Below, piece after piece: positions 3,836 to 34,048 of a stretch of 64,000 nucleotides of DNA. Where the stretch lies: IMG/VR virus record IMGVR_UViG_3300031857_000034, positions 32,001 to 96,000 of that record. The stretch is one strand, 5' to 3'. Numbering within the stretch: position 1 is the first letter of the stretch; every line of letters starts with the position of its first letter. Origin of the DNA: a virus. Below the pieces are notes generated by a model. That model made no database searches, was not told where the DNA came from, and worked only from the letters and a program-made list of their open reading frames with translations. Position numbers and translations under genes: made by a program.

Positions 3836-3858
3836 ATTGTAGGCTACCAAAAAACCGC

Positions 3859-3864
3859 TAAATA
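3859..3864 (+). promoter_or_regulatory. Late promoter gcTAAATA for the gp14-like gene
   Basis: TAAATA 6 nt before ATG 3871, no SD. Confidence 0.65.
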
Positions 3865-10440: not shown

Positions 10441-10476
10441 GCTGTTTCCAATTTACAACTATTTAGCGGAAACAGC
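10441..10476 (-). promoter_or_regulatory. RBS-sequestering hairpin with late promoter TAAATA in its loop
   Basis: gctgtttcc / ggaaacagc 9-bp inverted repeat; the minus-strand 3' arm contains GGA and ends 2 nt before ATG 10438; tattta at 10460-10465. Confidence 0.7.
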
Positions 10477-12838: not shown

Positions 12839-15354
12839 AGTTTGCGTTTGATATCATTGATTTCTTGACGTAACTCTTTGATGGCAGCAATAATCAATGG
12901 AGCAAATCTTTCATACTTGACTGTGAGATATCCGTCACCTATGGGTGCATCGGCTATGATCTCAGGCACTACATTGGCCACTTCTTGTGCCGACACACCA
13001 AGATCGCGATGTCGGGTATAACCATAGGTATTGACTGCTATGTCATTGGGCTCAAAGTAGAATGTGGTCAACTGATCAACTTTGTCCAGTGCGTTTTCTA
13101 TATTGCCCAATCTTGTTTTGAGCCTATCGTCTGAGAAGTATGCAATGATATTGCCTGTGGCCACAATCTCGCCATTGGTACCCGAAGGTGCAGTACCAAC
13201 ACCCAGTTGATTGACTTGTATATTGCCGTTTACTGTTGTGCTGTAAGTGACTTCCTTGGTACTGTTGTTGTATTGTAATATGCCTGCGTTGCCCGATGTG
13301 TTTCTAATAGGTGCTACCACAAACGAATTGGCCGTGGTGTTATTTAGATTGGCCCCTGTGCCGTTCAACACTATGGAATTGTTGGCTTGATTCACACGAC
13401 CTGCGCGGAAACCAATGGCTATGGAATTGGTTCCTTGGCTGTTGCCGCCGGCTTCTGCACCAATGGCTATGGCACCGGCCAGTTGTGTATTTTGTCCAGC
13501 ACCTATGCCAATGGCCACTGTGTAATAGTCTTGGGCAACATTGCCTGCGTTCACTCCAATGGCCACCGCAGTCTGGCTTTGTGTGGCCCCACCTGCTCCA
13601 GTGCCCAGAGCTATGTAATTGTTAGCCACTCCTGTCCAAGCTGTGTTCTGATAGGTGCCATCACCAAATGTTATTCGATCTGTCACTGCAATATTACCAC
13701 CAGAAATGTTGGATGTGAATATGCCGGATAAACCAAACACATTGGCCACAGCCACAATATTGCCAGAAGCAGTGATATTGCCATTGGCAGTGCCACTGGT
13801 AGAGATAGATCTAAATCCTGAAAGAGTGGCCGCAGGACTAGCACTTGTTGCCACGATGCTGTTTTCTACTATGAAATTTGCTGCACGAACATTGCCGGTG
13901 GTTGTGATGTTGCCTGCTGAGATGTTGCCTGTGTATGTAGGCAAGTAGTAGTCTACATTGGCATTGGAATAGCCGTTGGCAAAACCAAGATATTCTCCGT
14001 TGGCCACAACAAACTGGCCATCATAGGTGTTGCCTTGTAAATCTTCCAAGTATAATTTGTCAATACCTGCCATGATCAACACACCGCTATTGGCCAGTTC
14101 TGTGTTGCCAATAGTGGCTGTCTGCAGCCGGATGTTGCCTGCCACAGTCAGGGTATTGGTGTCAGTTGAATTTGCTCCTTGATAGATGTTAAGGCTTAGA
14201 TTGCTGATTCTAATGTTGGGTGCTGCAATATTTGAAGTGTCATAGACAAAATCATCTACACCGTACAAGGCGGTGCCATTGGAATTGTACTGGAAAGACC
14301 CTGGGGAATTTCCCGGGGTTGCCGATATGTTTTGGAACTCCACACCGTTGGCACCGTCGCTGATCAATGCTTGACCAATGTTGCCTCCAGGTATGCGCAG
14401 ATTGGCCACACTGGAAAACACAGCCAGGCCAGTGACATTAGATGTGACCGTCGTTAGGGCACCGCTGATGGAGACATTGCCAGCAGAAATATTACCGGTG
14501 TAGGAAACCAAGTAATTGGCCACATTGGCATTTGAATAACTGCTGGTAACGATGCCTGACAGGAATGCTCCATTGCCCAGCACATAACTGGCAGAGATAT
14601 TGGCTGTGGTAGTGACATTGCCAGCAAGACTATCCAAATTGCCCGAATACACAGGCAAGTAATTGGCCACATTAGCATTACTATATGCCGACGATAGTCC
14701 TGTGATAAAAGCACCGTTGCCTAAAATATAAGCAGCAGAAATATTAGCAGTGGTCGTGACATTGCCTGTCAATGACACTAGATTACCGGTATATGTTGGT
14801 AGATAACTTGGTAGATAAGCTGCCACATTGGCATTGCCGTACAGCACATTTGCACCAGCAAGATTGAGATATGACACTGCTCGGATGTTGCCAGCTGTGA
14901 TGTTGCCGTTGGTTGCGATATTGGCCGAGCCAATGTTGGCTGATGTGATATTGGCAAAAGTTGCTGTCACGCGATTTGACGAAACATTATTTGCTATAAG
15001 ATTACCTTTTCCTGCACCAGTTATGGTAATGTTGCCTGTCATTGCAACTGCATTATTTGCTTCATCAACAGTAAACTCATCAGATACTGCTGCGTTACCG
15101 CCTGGGGCTTTGTATAAAATTCCGTAATCGGTTCCGCTGGGCAAAACAACATTGCCTGTGATGTTGGCATAGATATTGCCGCCCAGTCCTACGATATTAC
15201 CATAAACTACTAAATTTGCAGACTGAAAAACAGTGTCTTTGTTGCCGCGGCGAACTGTGACAAGTGAATTTGACGTGGAGTCAAAATATTGCCAATTTTC
15301 ACTGGCGCCGGTCCAGAAATTAAAATTACCGGTAACTCTTTTAGATGAAGGCAT
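12835..15354 (-). CDS. Tail fibre with C-terminal intramolecular chaperone (peptidase S74)
   Basis: ATGNIIAYFSDDRLK..IENALDKV, GVSAQEV..VVPE, YLTVKYERFAPLIIAAIKEL; also YadA-like AIGxxAG repeats. Confidence 0.9.
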   Translation of the reverse strand: MPSSKRVTGNFNFWTGASENWQYFDSTSNSLVTVRRGNKDTVFQSANLVVYGNIVGLGGNIYANITGNVVLPSGTDYGILYKAPGGNAAVSDEFTVDEANNAVAMTGNITITGAGKGNLIANNVSSNRVTATFANITSANIGSANIATNGNITAGNIRAVSYLNLAGANVLYGNANVAAYLPSYLPTYTGNLVSLTGNVTTTANISAAYILGNGAFITGLSSAYSNANVANYLPVYSGNLDSLAGNVTTTANISASYVLGNGAFLSGIVTSSYSNANVANYLVSYTGNISAGNVSISGALTTVTSNVTGLAVFSSVANLRIPGGNIGQALISDGANGVEFQNISATPGNSPGSFQYNSNGTALYGVDDFVYDTSNIAAPNIRISNLSLNIYQGANSTDTNTLTVAGNIRLQTATIGNTELANSGVLIMAGIDKLYLEDLQGNTYDGQFVVANGEYLGFANGYSNANVDYYLPTYTGNISAGNITTTGNVRAANFIVENSIVATSASPAATLSGFRSISTSGTANGNITASGNIVAVANVFGLSGIFTSNISGGNIAVTDRITFGDGTYQNTAWTGVANNYIALGTGAGGATQSQTAVAIGVNAGNVAQDYYTVAIGIGAGQNTQLAGAIAIGAEAGGNSQGTNSIAIGFRAGRVNQANNSIVLNGTGANLNNTTANSFVVAPIRNTSGNAGILQYNNSTKEVTYSTTVNGNIQVNQLGVGTAPSGTNGEIVATGNIIAYFSDDRLKTRLGNIENALDKVDQLTTFYFEPNDIAVNTYGYTRHRDLGVSAQEVANVVPEIIADAPIGDGYLTVKYERFAPLIIAAIKELRQEINDIKRKL

Positions 15355-15947: not shown

Positions 15948-16045
15948 TTATTTCTCCTTGTTTAGATTGGGCTGACGTTCTAGGTCATACGCAGGGACCT
16001 GCATAAGTCTTGAGCGACTAGATATTTAGCGTTCTGGAGTAGAAA

Positions 16046-26172: not shown

Positions 26173-26387
26173 TACTAGATCAAGAATCGATTGAACAGTT
26201 GGTGTCAAAAATGGATCGAGACATCAACGGTATTAGGAGCGAAATGTGGGAAATATCATGGCTTAGCCGTGGTGGTATATCTTACGAAGATGCATTCTAT
26301 CTCAGTCCCACCGATCGCAAATTGTTCAATGACATGACCAAACAGCACATGGAAACCACCAAGAAGTCTGGATTGCCATTCTTTTAA
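26157..26387 (+). CDS. gp51-like segment, probably made as a frameshift extension of gp26
   Basis: -1 frame RAQLLVLDQESIEQLVSKMDRD...WLSRGGISYEDAFYLSPTDRK; no SD before TTG 26199 or ATG 26211. Confidence 0.65.
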   Translation, partial: RAQLLVLDQESIEQLVSKMDRDINGIRSEMWEISWLSRGGISYEDAFYLSPTDRKLFNDMTKQHMETTKKSGLPFF

Positions 26388-26924
26388 TTTTGGTCACAGT
26401 CAAGTCAGGGTATGTCATTTCTCAAGCACGAGTCTCACACTGTTTATAGATCACTGCGTGATCTTCAGATTTCGCTTGCGCTCATCTGAACTTAGTTCAT
26501 CCTAAAGTTTACTGTCAAAACCTTTGTTACTTTAAACTGATTTCCCAGAGCCTTGAGCCGTAGTTCACCCTGGGCGGGTGAACTATCGCTTGCCATGGTC
26601 AGAGTTTTCCCGTCACCTGGAAGAGCCGTCAGATTAAGAAGATTGTAGTCTGGTACACTACACGGAGGCGGTTGACCGGTACCCCCTACTTCAGCGTTCA
26701 TTTCAACGGTACTGACCCTGGACCCATCTGACGAATCCCGGATCAGCGCAGGTTGTTTCTTTTTCACAGTGCCTGCATCTTTTGTGCTACATTTTTCGCT
26801 CTAGGAGCATGGATATGTGCTAACTCATCGATTGCGGTGACTCTCCACACCCAGGGCCCAGAGGGTCCATCTTGGAGACTGGCATTCCAGCAGCCAGCGC
26901 AGGTCGTATTGTAGGGTTCTGTAG
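26388..26924 (-). ncRNA. Candidate large structured non-coding element (ncRNA and/or ssDNA origin)
   Basis: Largest intergenic gap in the window; many helices, an 8-bp loop-distal pairing, and TAACTA at 26922-26927. Confidence 0.55.
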
Positions 26925-27434
26925 TTAGGCAGCGCAATACTGCCGGACTAGATCAGCGTTTGTTTCCCAGAACTGATCGTAATCCATGATATACCAATGA
27001 TCGTGTTTGATGGAGCCGTAGTTGAATTGTCTAGATAGGAGATGGTCTCTGTGAGCCTGAGTTGCGATGTATTTGCCTTTGCGATTGAATTTCATGATCA
27101 ATATGTTGTAGTCACCGGGATCGGCAACGTCCATCAGTTGATCAAGCCACGTTTCTAAAACAGCAACCTGCCCTTGGAACAGTTGATGGAATGGAAAGTC
27201 TGCATACGACTTGCATTCACAATTGAATCGCGGAAAACTCTGCCCGGGTATGATGTCGCCTTTGAAAGCGCGGATCTGACCTTCGTGTAGTGTTTGTTTG
27301 CGATGTGTGTTCTTGCCACCAATGTATGCGCCTGAATTGGGCACACGGGTAAAAGTTTCTCCATAGAGTTCAGTTAGGTGCAAGGCTACTGCTCGTTCCC
27401 AACTGCTTCCTTTGGATTTACTTTTTGATGGCAT
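26925..27434 (-). CDS. Holliday junction resolvase-like PD-(D/E)XK nuclease
   Basis: SKSKGSSWER, RVPNSGA, GDII, ECKSY. Confidence 0.85.
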   Translation of the reverse strand: MPSKSKSKGSSWERAVALHLTELYGETFTRVPNSGAYIGGKNTHRKQTLHEGQIRAFKGDIIPGQSFPRFNCECKSYADFPFHQLFQGQVAVLETWLDQLMDVADPGDYNILIMKFNRKGKYIATQAHRDHLLSRQFNYGSIKHDHWYIMDYDQFWETNADLVRQYCAA

Positions 27435-27472
27435 AGGCAGATAGTTAGCTGAGTCTAGAGTCTGTTCAAAAT

Positions 27473-31190: not shown

Positions 31191-31252
31191 CCGCGGATCA
31201 CTCCAAAATCGCCGTTTTTACGGGTGCTAAATATAGATAACAGGATAAAGCA

Positions 31253-34048
31253 ATGGCATTGACACCACAACAGATAGCCGCAGAACTCAACAGACTGACA
31301 TCTCAGGGTCTTACCTTAGAACAGGCAGAACAACAAGTTCCCGGAGCCACTGCGCTGCTTGAAAGCACAGAGTTGATACTAAACGATGTGCCGGGCAGCC
31401 CCACGCGTGGCCAAGTAGAAGTTTATACTACTGGCAGTAAAAAAGCGGGTGTAGATTATAATGTTTATACTCCAACTGCTGAGGAACAAGCAGAAAACGC
31501 TCGATTCTTTGAAGATCCTCCGCCCACCAATATTACCAATCAACCGGTGGTTTCATCTCCCCCGCTCAAAACAACAACCACCACTACCACCTTTACCGAG
31601 GAACAAGTGTCCACATCCGGAGGCGGGGTGACCACTTTCAAAGTGGCGGATTTTGTGTATAAGGATACACCTGCCAGCCGGGCTCTGCAGACTCAGGCCG
31701 ATTCAGTCGGTTTGGAAAAAGAAGCTTATGCACAGAGCCTGCGCGATCAAGGCAAAAGCGGAAGAGAGATTCTGAGAGATCCCACCTATCGAGAACTCAG
31801 CGCCAAGCAAACAGCATTGAACAATCGAGCATTTGAAGCCAAGTCTGGCGAAGGCGGGGAGGTTACCACCACATATGAACCTGGCGTTAGTGAAACTATC
31901 AACAGCACTACAGTGACATCCTCTGTTACCAATTCGCAAGTGCCCCAGACAGCACAGACCAGAATAACCACAGAAGCCGAAGCCACACGCCAACAGGTGG
32001 CGGCTCTTGACAGCGGCGACAGCGCGGTAAACACTACCAAGATTGCCGGAGCCGAAGGCAACAATACCTTGGTGCAGACCAACACAGTAGAAGGTGCCGC
32101 CACAGCATCTCCACAAGCATCCTTCAACACAGCACAACCTAGGAGTATAGATGCACCAGTAAACACGGCAATAAGTCCTGAATTGACTCGGCCGGCAGAT
32201 ACCAATTCGACGTCACGAGCGTATCAGACGCAGGTAGACGATTACCGAGCGCAGGTCAATGACTTAAAATCTGACTTGGAGATTCAGCAGACGCAGCTCA
32301 AGTCATTGGAAGCGGCCCGTGCTAAGTTGGGTGAGGAACTAAAGTCGGCTGCTCCAGGCAGCCCCGAGCAAGCAGAGATACTGGCTAAACGCAATGCCTT
32401 GAACTCAGATATATCCGATCAAGAAAACAAAATTGGCCAGACCAACAGCGTGCTGGCCATCAAAGAACAAAGTTTGACACAAAGTCAGGATGACTTAGCC
32501 AGAGTATCCTCGGGAGGCTCAGCACCTGCACCTGGGGCTCCAGCAGTGACCGGAAACGCAGATCCCGCGGCCAACGCTATTAATCAGCAGGCTGCGGAGA
32601 TAAACAATGCCACTCCAAATACCACAACAGTAAACCCAGAATTAGATTCTGCATTATCTGCACAGCAATCTGCAACCGACGACGAAATCGATCAGCAACG
32701 AGAAAATCAACTGATCACAGTAGACGAAGATGGAAATTTCACAGCAGAGAATCCCTACACAGCTGTACAAGGCGGAGATGATGCTGAATTAACAGATGAA
32801 CAGATTGATCTGGCGCGAGAAAATCAACTGATTGAGCAAGACGAAGATGGAAATCTAACAGCAGAGAATCCTTATGATGTCCAAGGCGGAGATGATGCTC
32901 AATTAACAGATGAACAGATTGATCTGGAACGAGAAAATCAACTTATAGTACAAGATGAGGATGGAAACCTAACAGCAGAGAATCCCTACACAGCCATTGG
33001 AGATCGAGAACTCAGCGAAGAAGAACAGCAAGAACAAGACAATCCCATTGATTACAGCAATGAAGTGGAAGTGGATCCCTACAGCGATGTTGAAGGCGAT
33101 TACGGCGAACGTGAAGAAGGCACCGGCGACGATGTAGTCGAAGTTGGCCCCGACGGTTCACTGACTGCTCGTGCCCAGACACAGGCCGAAGTAGAAACAC
33201 TGCGTCAAGCACAGGCTCTACAACAACTGCGTGCCAAAAACACCAACGAAGATTGGCGTTTGCGAATTGGCCTAGCACCGGGTGCCAACTATCTGTACCG
33301 AGCACCCGATGCCGGCATATTACAACCTTTGAGAGAAACACAAGGTGTGGTGTTTCCATATACTCCCACAATATCAACAAGCTATCGCGCCAATTATGAT
33401 GCTTACGAATTGGTACATACCAACTACAAAGGATATTTCTACAAAAATTCCAGCGTACAGGAAATTTCTGTAACTGGTGTGTTCACTGCCAACAGCGCCG
33501 CCGAAGCTGATTATATGTTGGCTGTGATACATTTTTTCCGCAGCGCCAGCAAAATGTTTTACGGACAAGACTCCAATCCCGTGGCAGGCACACCGCCCCC
33601 GGTGCTGTATTTGGACGGCCTTGGAGTTTATCAATTCAATGAACATCCTTGTTTGCTCAGCGCATTCAACTATAGTCTACCTTCGGATGTGGATTATATC
33701 CGTGCCGGTGGTGCAAGAAATTATTCAGGCGGTGCTGTAAATTTAGCTGGTATTAGAAATCAACAAGGCGCTGCCAGCAACAGTCCTTTGGGTGCCACGC
33801 TGTCTAGGCTGACCAGTCTAAAAAATACATTTGATAATTTTATCAATCCTGGTGCTAGAGCAAATAATCCTGTGTCACAAAACATCACTAATTACTATGG
33901 TATCGCAGGTCAGCCCACATATGTGCCTACCAAAATTGACATATCAATCACACTACTACCATTGATAAGTCGCCAGCAACAAGCACAGGTCTTTAGCCTT
34001 AAAAATTATGCCACCGGGCAAGGCCTGCGTGAACAAGGATTCTTCTAA
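31253..34048 (+). CDS. Baseplate/tail-tube-initiator-like protein with long low-complexity N-terminus
   Basis: C-terminal DWRLRI, GVVFPYTP.I, HTNY, HFFRSASKMFYG, GTPPPVL.L.G.G motifs; upstream of gp53. Confidence 0.6.
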   Translation: MALTPQQIAAELNRLTSQGLTLEQAEQQVPGATALLESTELILNDVPGSPTRGQVEVYTTGSKKAGVDYNVYTPTAEEQAENARFFEDPPPTNITNQPVVSSPPLKTTTTTTTFTEEQVSTSGGGVTTFKVADFVYKDTPASRALQTQADSVGLEKEAYAQSLRDQGKSGREILRDPTYRELSAKQTALNNRAFEAKSGEGGEVTTTYEPGVSETINSTTVTSSVTNSQVPQTAQTRITTEAEATRQQVAALDSGDSAVNTTKIAGAEGNNTLVQTNTVEGAATASPQASFNTAQPRSIDAPVNTAISPELTRPADTNSTSRAYQTQVDDYRAQVNDLKSDLEIQQTQLKSLEAARAKLGEELKSAAPGSPEQAEILAKRNALNSDISDQENKIGQTNSVLAIKEQSLTQSQDDLARVSSGGSAPAPGAPAVTGNADPAANAINQQAAEINNATPNTTTVNPELDSALSAQQSATDDEIDQQRENQLITVDEDGNFTAENPYTAVQGGDDAELTDEQIDLARENQLIEQDEDGNLTAENPYDVQGGDDAQLTDEQIDLERENQLIVQDEDGNLTAENPYTAIGDRELSEEEQQEQDNPIDYSNEVEVDPYSDVEGDYGEREEGTGDDVVEVGPDGSLTARAQTQAEVETLRQAQALQQLRAKNTNEDWRLRIGLAPGANYLYRAPDAGILQPLRETQGVVFPYTPTISTSYRANYDAYELVHTNYKGYFYKNSSVQEISVTGVFTANSAAEADYMLAVIHFFRSASKMFYGQDSNPVAGTPPPVLYLDGLGVYQFNEHPCLLSAFNYSLPSDVDYIRAGGARNYSGGAVNLAGIRNQQGAASNSPLGATLSRLTSLKNTFDNFINPGARANNPVSQNITNYYGIAGQPTYVPTKIDISITLLPLISRQQQAQVFSLKNYATGQGLREQGFF
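32680..32995 (+). repeat. Three in-frame tandem repeats (periods 117 and 114 nt)
   Basis: cgagaaaatcaact at 32699, 32816, 32930; unit ID..RENQLI..DEDGN.TAENPY. Confidence 0.9.

Follow-up and report, generated by a model that had tools for sequence, protein, structure and literature searches.

Evidence for a widespread, large structured RNA family in uncultured freshwater T4-like jumbo phages

Only a few bacterial and phage RNAs longer than 300 nucleotides (nt) combine an intricate, conserved fold with the lack of a known function (OLE, GOLLD, ROOL, HEARO and raiA), and new biochemistry has come, or may yet come, from each of them. GOLLD (RF01998) and ROOL (RF03087) are large, many-helix, pseudoknotted phage RNA genes without known function, and they often adjoin tRNA genes. 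Both have been reported to form RNA-only assemblies (PMC12286853). The Polynucleobacter-1 RNA motif (RF01718) comes from freshwater and has no known function (Weinberg et al. 2010, PMC2864571); phage PA5oct has four published noncoding RNAs (ncRNAs), with abundant transcripts devoid of any open reading frame (ORF) and of known function (Lood et al. 2020, PMC7318152); and a survey reports more than ten thousand candidate structured RNAs from viruses and phages (Fremin et al. 2023, PMC10690425). Here we describe an element at positions 26448-26905, minus strand, of a 64,000-nt stretch of viral DNA (positions 32,001 to 96,000 of IMG/VR record IMGVR_UViG_3300031857_000034; hereafter the window). 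It is very probably a member of an uncatalogued family of large structured ncRNAs, widespread in uncultured freshwater T4-like jumbo phages.

The element lies in a gap (26388-26924) flanked by two converging genes, gp51 and a resolvase, as an earlier note on this DNA had described and as the flanking ORFs confirm. In this gap the note had proposed an undescribed, tertiary-folded ncRNA on the minus strand. Folding energy favors that strand (z = -2.34 for the minus strand, matched by 2 of 100 shuffles; z = +0.45 for the plus strand); taken alone it is weak evidence, and relatives were therefore sought. Eighty virus loci were fetched with the resolvase as bait, and blastn showed that 26662-26783 is kept in these loci at 65-72% identity, only in the minus-strand orientation; the conserved segment lies downstream of either the resolvase or a gene that has been inserted. 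An initial alignment, of 13 copies, displayed covarying helices and a block of invariant bases, from which a 15-base degenerate pattern was taken. Scanning virus contigs with this pattern gave at least 120 loci, and a sequence profile confirmed 139 matches among 201 loci. Cellular genome contigs (596 Gb) contained at least 120 matches to the pattern; among the 120 listed, three were real copies, at least two of them in one metagenome bin, and the others were mostly chance. A blastn search of GenBank phages with three family members found no match.

A covariance model of 209 positions (R1) was built from 44 diverse copies of the core; it covers helices P0 and P2-P5 and the invariant junctions, and leaves the pseudoknots out. 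The core structure of the 44-copy alignment was obtained by inspection and RNAalifold and then counted: on plain MAFFT alignments RNAalifold recovered it in part, and the remaining helices were added by inspection before counting. In the 94 sources searched, the window and 93 loci chosen out of 327, R1 matched exactly once each, and it found one copy in each of five virus records out of five, including a complete genome of 346,856 bp. The match in the window spans 26577-26797 on the minus strand and the full model (positions 1-209; 136 bits, E 2.7e-31), and this copy forms 25 of the 30 nested pairs of the R1 structure. Its core match, the pseudoknots PK1-PK3 and the 3' domain place it within the R1 family.

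In the 44 sequences 84.4% of the cells were paired, compared with 69.9% after shuffling, and none of 500 shuffles reached any of five measures. The 94-row alignment was fitted to the nested structure, which favors the pairing score of that structure; in it 88.6% of cells were paired against 71.0% in shuffles, 712 cells carried double-sided changes against 213, and again none of 500 shuffles reached the observed values. When the partners were slid by 1-3 columns as a control, pairing in the 94 copies was 38.9-49.2%. Covariation of the helices in related phages, for which the earlier note had suggested looking, is thus present. Paired cells include 666 G-U and 114 A-C combinations, and this excess of G-U identifies the minus strand as the RNA, in line with the folding energies and with the strand originally proposed. 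No conserved reading frame was found, as each of the six core-anchored frames is stopped in at least 93 of the 94 copies. Rfam 15 gave no match at the gathering threshold in the window and in 16 related loci, and at E up to 10 it gave chance-level rows only for the window region, the family locus L122 and 18 loci; a literature search, which did not cover the supplementary catalogue of PMC10690425, found no description of this RNA. Taken together, the R1 matches, the covariation, the PK1 test described below, the interrupted frames and the empty Rfam search uphold the proposal of an undescribed, tertiary-folded ncRNA of about 460-500 nt.

The core of about 200 nt comprises P2-P5, tied by PK1, PK2 and the putative PK3 around some 30 nearly invariant bases (AAAUGAU, GUUCCG, GUAGGGGGUAC, CAACCGCCUCCG and AAUCU); this and all further features of the RNA are on the minus strand. 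P2 (26748-26776) is a hairpin with the conserved loop CUGUGAAAAAGAAACAAC, paired in 90.5% of cells with double changes in four of six pairs, and its inner UGU/ACA stem is 98% paired. P3 (26712-26746), a hairpin whose 7-nt loop is the 5' strand of PK1, is 88.2% paired with double changes in all ten pairs. Ten changed bases of L329, a near-identical relative, form a block on both sides of the outer P3 stem that, by eye, keeps it paired. The strands of P4, CGUUGA (26703-26708) and GUCAAC (26671-26676), are 96.8% paired with double changes in five of six pairs, and the P5 hairpin (26644-26662) is 86.6% paired with double changes in all three. The helices now called P2, P3 and P5 had been picked out beforehand by complementarity within the window, and all three are borne out by these counts. 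A further helix proposed at 26664-26686 survives in its outer part, GGGGGU/GCCUCC; its inner cgg/ccg stem is not conserved, and the bases assigned to that stem belong to P4. In the family alignment the conserved P0 loop GCUAACUUAAGGC resembles the late-promoter variant GCTAACTA, and through this loop a promoter may be nested inside the RNA gene; the window copy does not have this loop sequence.

The earlier note had also pointed to a long-range pairing between the loop of the 26712-26746 hairpin and a segment about 100 nt away. In the window this pairing, PK1, consists of eight perfect base pairs between CGUCAGAU in the P3 loop (26726-26733) and AUCUGACG in the segment after PK2 (26627-26634). 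In an alignment-free test, at least six contiguous Watson-Crick pairs could form in 74 of the 94 copies, compared with 5% of non-cognate combinations, and the duplex occurs in 43 distinct sequence versions among these copies; PK1 is a real pairing, and the prediction holds. PK2 joins GAAG (26689-26692, within GCUGAAG) to CUUC (26638-26641, within AAUCUUCUU) and is 93.9% paired with double changes in three of four pairs; all four pairs form in the window. The putative PK3 lies in the near-invariant core sequence UAGGGGGUAC...CCGCCUCCG (26664-26686), where GGGGGU (26681-26686) can pair with GCCUCC (26664-26669); all six pairs form in the window, and in the family 98.8% of cells are paired, with a G-U pair replaced by A-U in eight copies and by G-C in one and otherwise no variation.

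Downstream of the core the family shares an ordered 3' domain consisting of box 1, P6, UAUGACC, box 2, an A-rich linker, P7 and a terminal hairpin, P8. The window copy has ACUCUGACCAUG (26594-26605) at the position of the family's first twin box, and then P6, a perfect 10-bp hairpin between the boxes (26561-26585). The diverged element GGCUCUGGGAAAU (26540-26552) is assigned to the second box by position only. It is followed by P7 (26465-26490), capped by GAGCGCAAGCGAA, and by P8 (26448-26464; AGAUCAC-GCA-GUGAUCU). P6, P8 and P7 with its GAGC-loop-GCGAA cap, a motif carried by 60 of 93 copies, are therefore all present in the window. In those 60 copies P6 has a stem of at least 7 bp in 59, with 38 different 5' strands; P7 has at least 5 bp in 55, with 40 different strands; and P8 has 7-8 bp in 56, with 29 different strands. 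P6 had been noticed in the window as a perfect inverted repeat, and its standing as a helix is secured by these counts. The twin boxes are identical 7-mers in 79 of the 94 copies, against 1.4% of non-cognate combinations; they occur in at least 13 versions, and the second lies 18-95 nt downstream of the first. No site complementary to the boxes was found inside the RNA, cognate combinations being no better than non-cognate ones. The 3' domain was also read by eye as a hammerhead, a k-turn or C/D-box, a CsrA site or a group I intron, and each reading was rejected because the bases it requires are not conserved.

The ends of the RNA were placed by comparison with L328 and L329, the only close relatives from the scan of metagenome contigs (resolvase 100% and 99% identical, respectively; the next at most 67%). 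Differences from the window, given as L328/L329, number 0/0 in the last 76 nt of the resolvase and 4/4 in the 19-nt variable spacer after its stop codon (26906-26924), which holds the sequence TAACTA. Within the RNA they number 0/3 in the 108-nt 5' domain (26798-26905), 0/11 in the 221-nt core (10 of the 11 being the block that keeps P3 paired), 1/0 in the 37-nt P6 region and 0/1 in the 43 nt of P7-P8. A 49-nt insertion (26491-26539) with 8/11 differences is lineage-specific and lacking in other family members; a 60-nt tail or spacer (26388-26447) has 10/9 differences and no stable fold, and 188 nt of the gp51-like ORF have 13/13. From this pattern the folded RNA most likely runs from about 26905 to 26448, with the tail and the insertion probably outside it. 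Together with the R1 match and P6-P8, the pattern outlines an ncRNA of about 458 nt composed of a 5' domain, the triple-pseudoknot core and the 3' domain. The core is more constrained than the neighboring coding sequence of the gp51-like ORF.

The 5' domain of the window copy consists of a GAC-CUGCG leader, a CUGGC/GCCAG hairpin and a UCUCCA/UGGAGA helix (26842-26878). By eye its layout (GAC-CUGCG-hairpin) resembles the GAC-UCUGUG-hairpin-long-range helix of the family. This part is shared only by L328, which has no difference in its 108 nt, and L329, which has 3; the UCUCCA/UGGAGA helix, pointed out in the earlier note, is a plausible candidate. In many loci a (T)TAGGCA motif recurs 8-20 nt upstream of the first hairpin of the RNA; five copies stand in a row at L103:9968-10050, and the window has the reverse complement, TGCCTAA, at the same place.

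A number of observations weigh against the assignment of this locus to a structured RNA family, or against parts of the proposed fold. On fixed alignment columns PK1 is paired in only 62-66% of cells, a low figure that reflects a register varying from lineage to lineage; what speaks for PK1 is the alignment-free test. PK3 is so nearly invariant that covariation cannot prove it, and its pairing is plausible. The 5' domain has no covariation support, its folding energy is not better than that of shuffles (z = -0.11), and a profile of the family's 5' domain (hairpin and CCCA/UGGG helix) gave no match in 26700-27000. The window copy also has no identical boxes, its best second copy being displaced and agreeing at 5 of 7 positions, so that either the boxes would be dispensable or this copy would work differently. 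A scan of the locus for sigma-70 promoters and for intrinsic terminators with a U-tract returned no sites. Contigs from RNA libraries (four runs, three studies) cover 26598-26782 with no differences, 26508-26679 with no differences and one gap, 26522-26690 with 10 differences, and 26848-27049 with two differences, the last bridging the end of the resolvase and the RNA; pieces of other family members in such contigs fall on the invariant core. Because neither strand, ends nor level can be read from these contigs and DNA may have been included, they give only a hint of expression, and stretches outside their cover (for example 26388-26507, and most flanking genes in runs X15 and X17) are uninformative. 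Finally, loci were fetched partly with the resolvase as bait, so that the counts of neighboring genes describe a biased sample; in this sample the ORF upstream of the RNA, where there is one, is co-oriented with it in 87 of 88 loci, and the downstream ORF converges on it in 69 of 93.

The upstream ORFs fall into 11 unrelated clusters, comprising 54 SegE-type GIY-YIG nucleases (PF19835, E 9.5e-33), 20 resolvases and others, and the downstream ORFs into 25 clusters; given this variety, the RNA does not serve any one neighbor. Immediately upstream of the RNA, the SegE-type ORF, of 142-152 amino acids (aa), is found in 54 loci, L122 among them, and in most of the family members fetched with the RNA pattern. 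In T4 the seg genes code for homing endonucleases of the free-standing type, which settle next to conserved targets, and the upstream nuclease genes are, by analogy, best read as homing-endonuclease genes parked beside a conserved target and not as partners of the RNA; a habit of this kind means that the pairing of gene and RNA needs no functional tie. In the window the RNA follows the PDDEXK_15 'resolvase' (26925-27434, minus strand, 169 aa), itself downstream of a gp46-like nuclease gene, and on its other side stands the gp51-like ORF (26199-26387, plus strand, 62 aa), downstream of a baseplate-hub gene. The window is part of a 127,758-bp IMG/VR virus contig. Among cultured phages its gp46-like protein is closest to those of Pseudomonas PA5oct (50% identity), Sinorhizobium Phosso and Agrobacterium Atu_ph07, a kinship that marks the source as an uncultured T4-like jumbo phage. 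The DNA runs containing the stretch are mostly labeled freshwater or lake water; eight runs with nearly the whole stretch carry the odd label 'fungus metagenome' for a lake phage.

Promoter-like sequence in the window is of a different kind from that first suggested. The 7-mers GCTAAAT and CTAAATA each occur upstream of 5 of the 41 ORFs in the window, some 30-35 times expectation. The octamer GCTAAATA has five exact copies (2333-2340, 3857-3864, 10460-10467, 16023-16030 and 31226-31233) and is probably the late promoter of the phage; GCTAACTA, one mismatch away from it, stands at 27442-27449, 8 nt before the resolvase start. A late promoter at TAACTA (26922-26927) is not supported: TAACTACA with at most one mismatch occurs 57 times where 50 are expected, and TAACTA is two mismatches from the enriched motif GCTAAATA and is changed in both L328 and L329.

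What the RNA does can be proposed with much less assurance. A tentative account, to which we give somewhat less than even confidence, is that of a trans-acting globular RNA or RNA-protein scaffold trimmed from the transcript of the upstream gene. Because the upstream gene is nearly always co-oriented, read-through followed by trimming is the likeliest origin that we infer: that gene (here the resolvase, whose start is preceded by the late-promoter variant) would give a transcript whose 3' part is the RNA, and trimming would then leave a stable, globular RNA acting in trans. Such an RNA would be no regulator of its neighbors but could offer two equivalent binding sites to a partner for which it is scaffold or decoy; each twin box would bind one copy, or one half, of this lineage-specific partner. 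That the boxes change together points to a specific partner. A further reading, which we consider unlikely, is that the RNA represents a new class of catalytic or assembly-forming RNA, in which the triple-pseudoknot core would be an active site or multimerization hub and the boxes recognition or processing sites for a phage-specific partner. Were this so, the RNA would be a programmable element of jumbo-phage infection and not an inert scaffold.

The arrangement that suggests read-through would also suit a 3'-untranslated element acting in cis, which would protect the upstream mRNA against 3' exonucleases or provide insulation or termination between convergent operons and would have no role in trans. 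The co-oriented gene upstream, the convergence of the next gene in most loci, the failure to find a promoter belonging to the RNA and the RNA-library contig that bridges it to the resolvase are all as expected of such an element. We nevertheless find it rather improbable, as some 30 invariant bases and three pseudoknots behind 11 unrelated gene clusters exceed the needs of a stabilizer or terminator, the locus has no U-tract terminator, and the core is under more constraint than the coding sequence beside it.

A self-cleaving or self-processing ribozyme, with the knotted invariant core as its catalytic center and the twin boxes as equivalent processing sites, is by analogy a doubtful candidate. 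Invariant junctions, covarying helices and multiple nested pseudoknots do resemble those of known ribozymes and riboswitches, two identical boxes flank a conserved hairpin, and homing-endonuclease genes often accompany self-splicing RNAs. Against this, the self-cleaving ribozymes and group I and group II introns of Rfam gave no match at E up to 10 in the loci searched at that threshold, there are no flanking exons, as the downstream gene mostly converges, the RNA-library contigs show no ends, and the window copy has no identical boxes.

The same boxes could be seen as direct repeats that bind an initiator, since repeats that keep the same sequence as one another are reminiscent of iterons. The element would then serve replication, either as such a DNA signal or as an origin transcript priming DNA synthesis; T4 origins use transcripts as primers, and recombination and repair genes (gp46/47-like, resolvase) adjoin the RNA. 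This is very unlikely to be its role: the G-U over A-C asymmetry and the compensatory changes show that selection acts on the fold of a single strand with one defined polarity, the cumulative GC skew shows no turn near 26.5 kb, and the position of the element in the genome varies among relatives.

That the RNA is a divergent member of Polynucleobacter-1 is highly improbable. The two share a freshwater habitat (PMC2864571), and searches fail in both directions. The RF01718 model, of 141 positions compared with about 209 for the core alone of the present RNA, requires at least 37 bits for membership and has no hit at E up to 10 in either the record of the window or five further records, nor is it among the rows at that threshold for the window region, L122 and 18 loci. 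Conversely, R1 with filters off does not recognize a genuine RF01718 copy (L327:1501-1635, minus strand, 92.4 bits), and its best score in that locus, 3.1 bits, lies elsewhere. The L327 contig belongs to the metagenome bin that also holds two copies of the jumbo-phage RNA, and some 800 bp separate its RF01718 copy from an ORF (194 aa) that appears by eye to encode a tyrosine recombinase or integrase; RF01718 may thus ride on an integrating element. Least of all do we credit the view that two small minus-strand ORFs (26764-26937, 57 aa, and 26492-26767, 91 aa), which overlap head to tail and, through start and stop codons that overlap, form an operon-like chain with the resolvase, are real genes: they have no protein family and no relative, the RNA family has no conserved open frame, and the substitutions in helices are compensatory and not codon-like, so that the chain is best ascribed to chance.

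Returning to the described systems, the candidates of Fremin et al. that are reported next to resolvase and RusA genes stand upstream of them (PMC10690425), whereas the present RNA lies downstream. Judged by the gp46-like protein, PA5oct is the nearest relative in culture, and R1 matches none of the four ncRNA intervals given in its published account (PMC7318152). The only R1 match in PA5oct is weak (19.3 bits, E 0.0086, at 13102-13377) and lies in a 911-nt unannotated gap (NC_071039.1 12810-13720; L326:1211-2121) with a perfect TTGACA-17-TATAAT promoter at its start; the P2 loop, GUUCCG, P4 and CCGCCUC are retained in the match, which may be a distant homologue of this RNA. If genuine, this copy would provide a cultured model in which the family is open to genetics.

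The nearest likeness remains that to GOLLD and ROOL, in whose size class the earlier note had put the RNA. The broad kind is shared, as all three are large, many-helix, pseudoknotted phage RNAs; membership is not, since neither family is listed at E up to 10 for the window region, L122 and 18 loci, and the twin boxes and the core are different here. GOLLD and ROOL are also longer than this RNA, which has about 460 nt here and 330-400 nt in most relatives, and the tRNA neighborhood typical of them is missing, ARAGORN finding no tRNA or tmRNA gene in the 64-kb window. The present triple-pseudoknot RNA family, absent from Rfam 15, is common (at least 120 virus loci), single-copy and more constrained than its neighboring genes.

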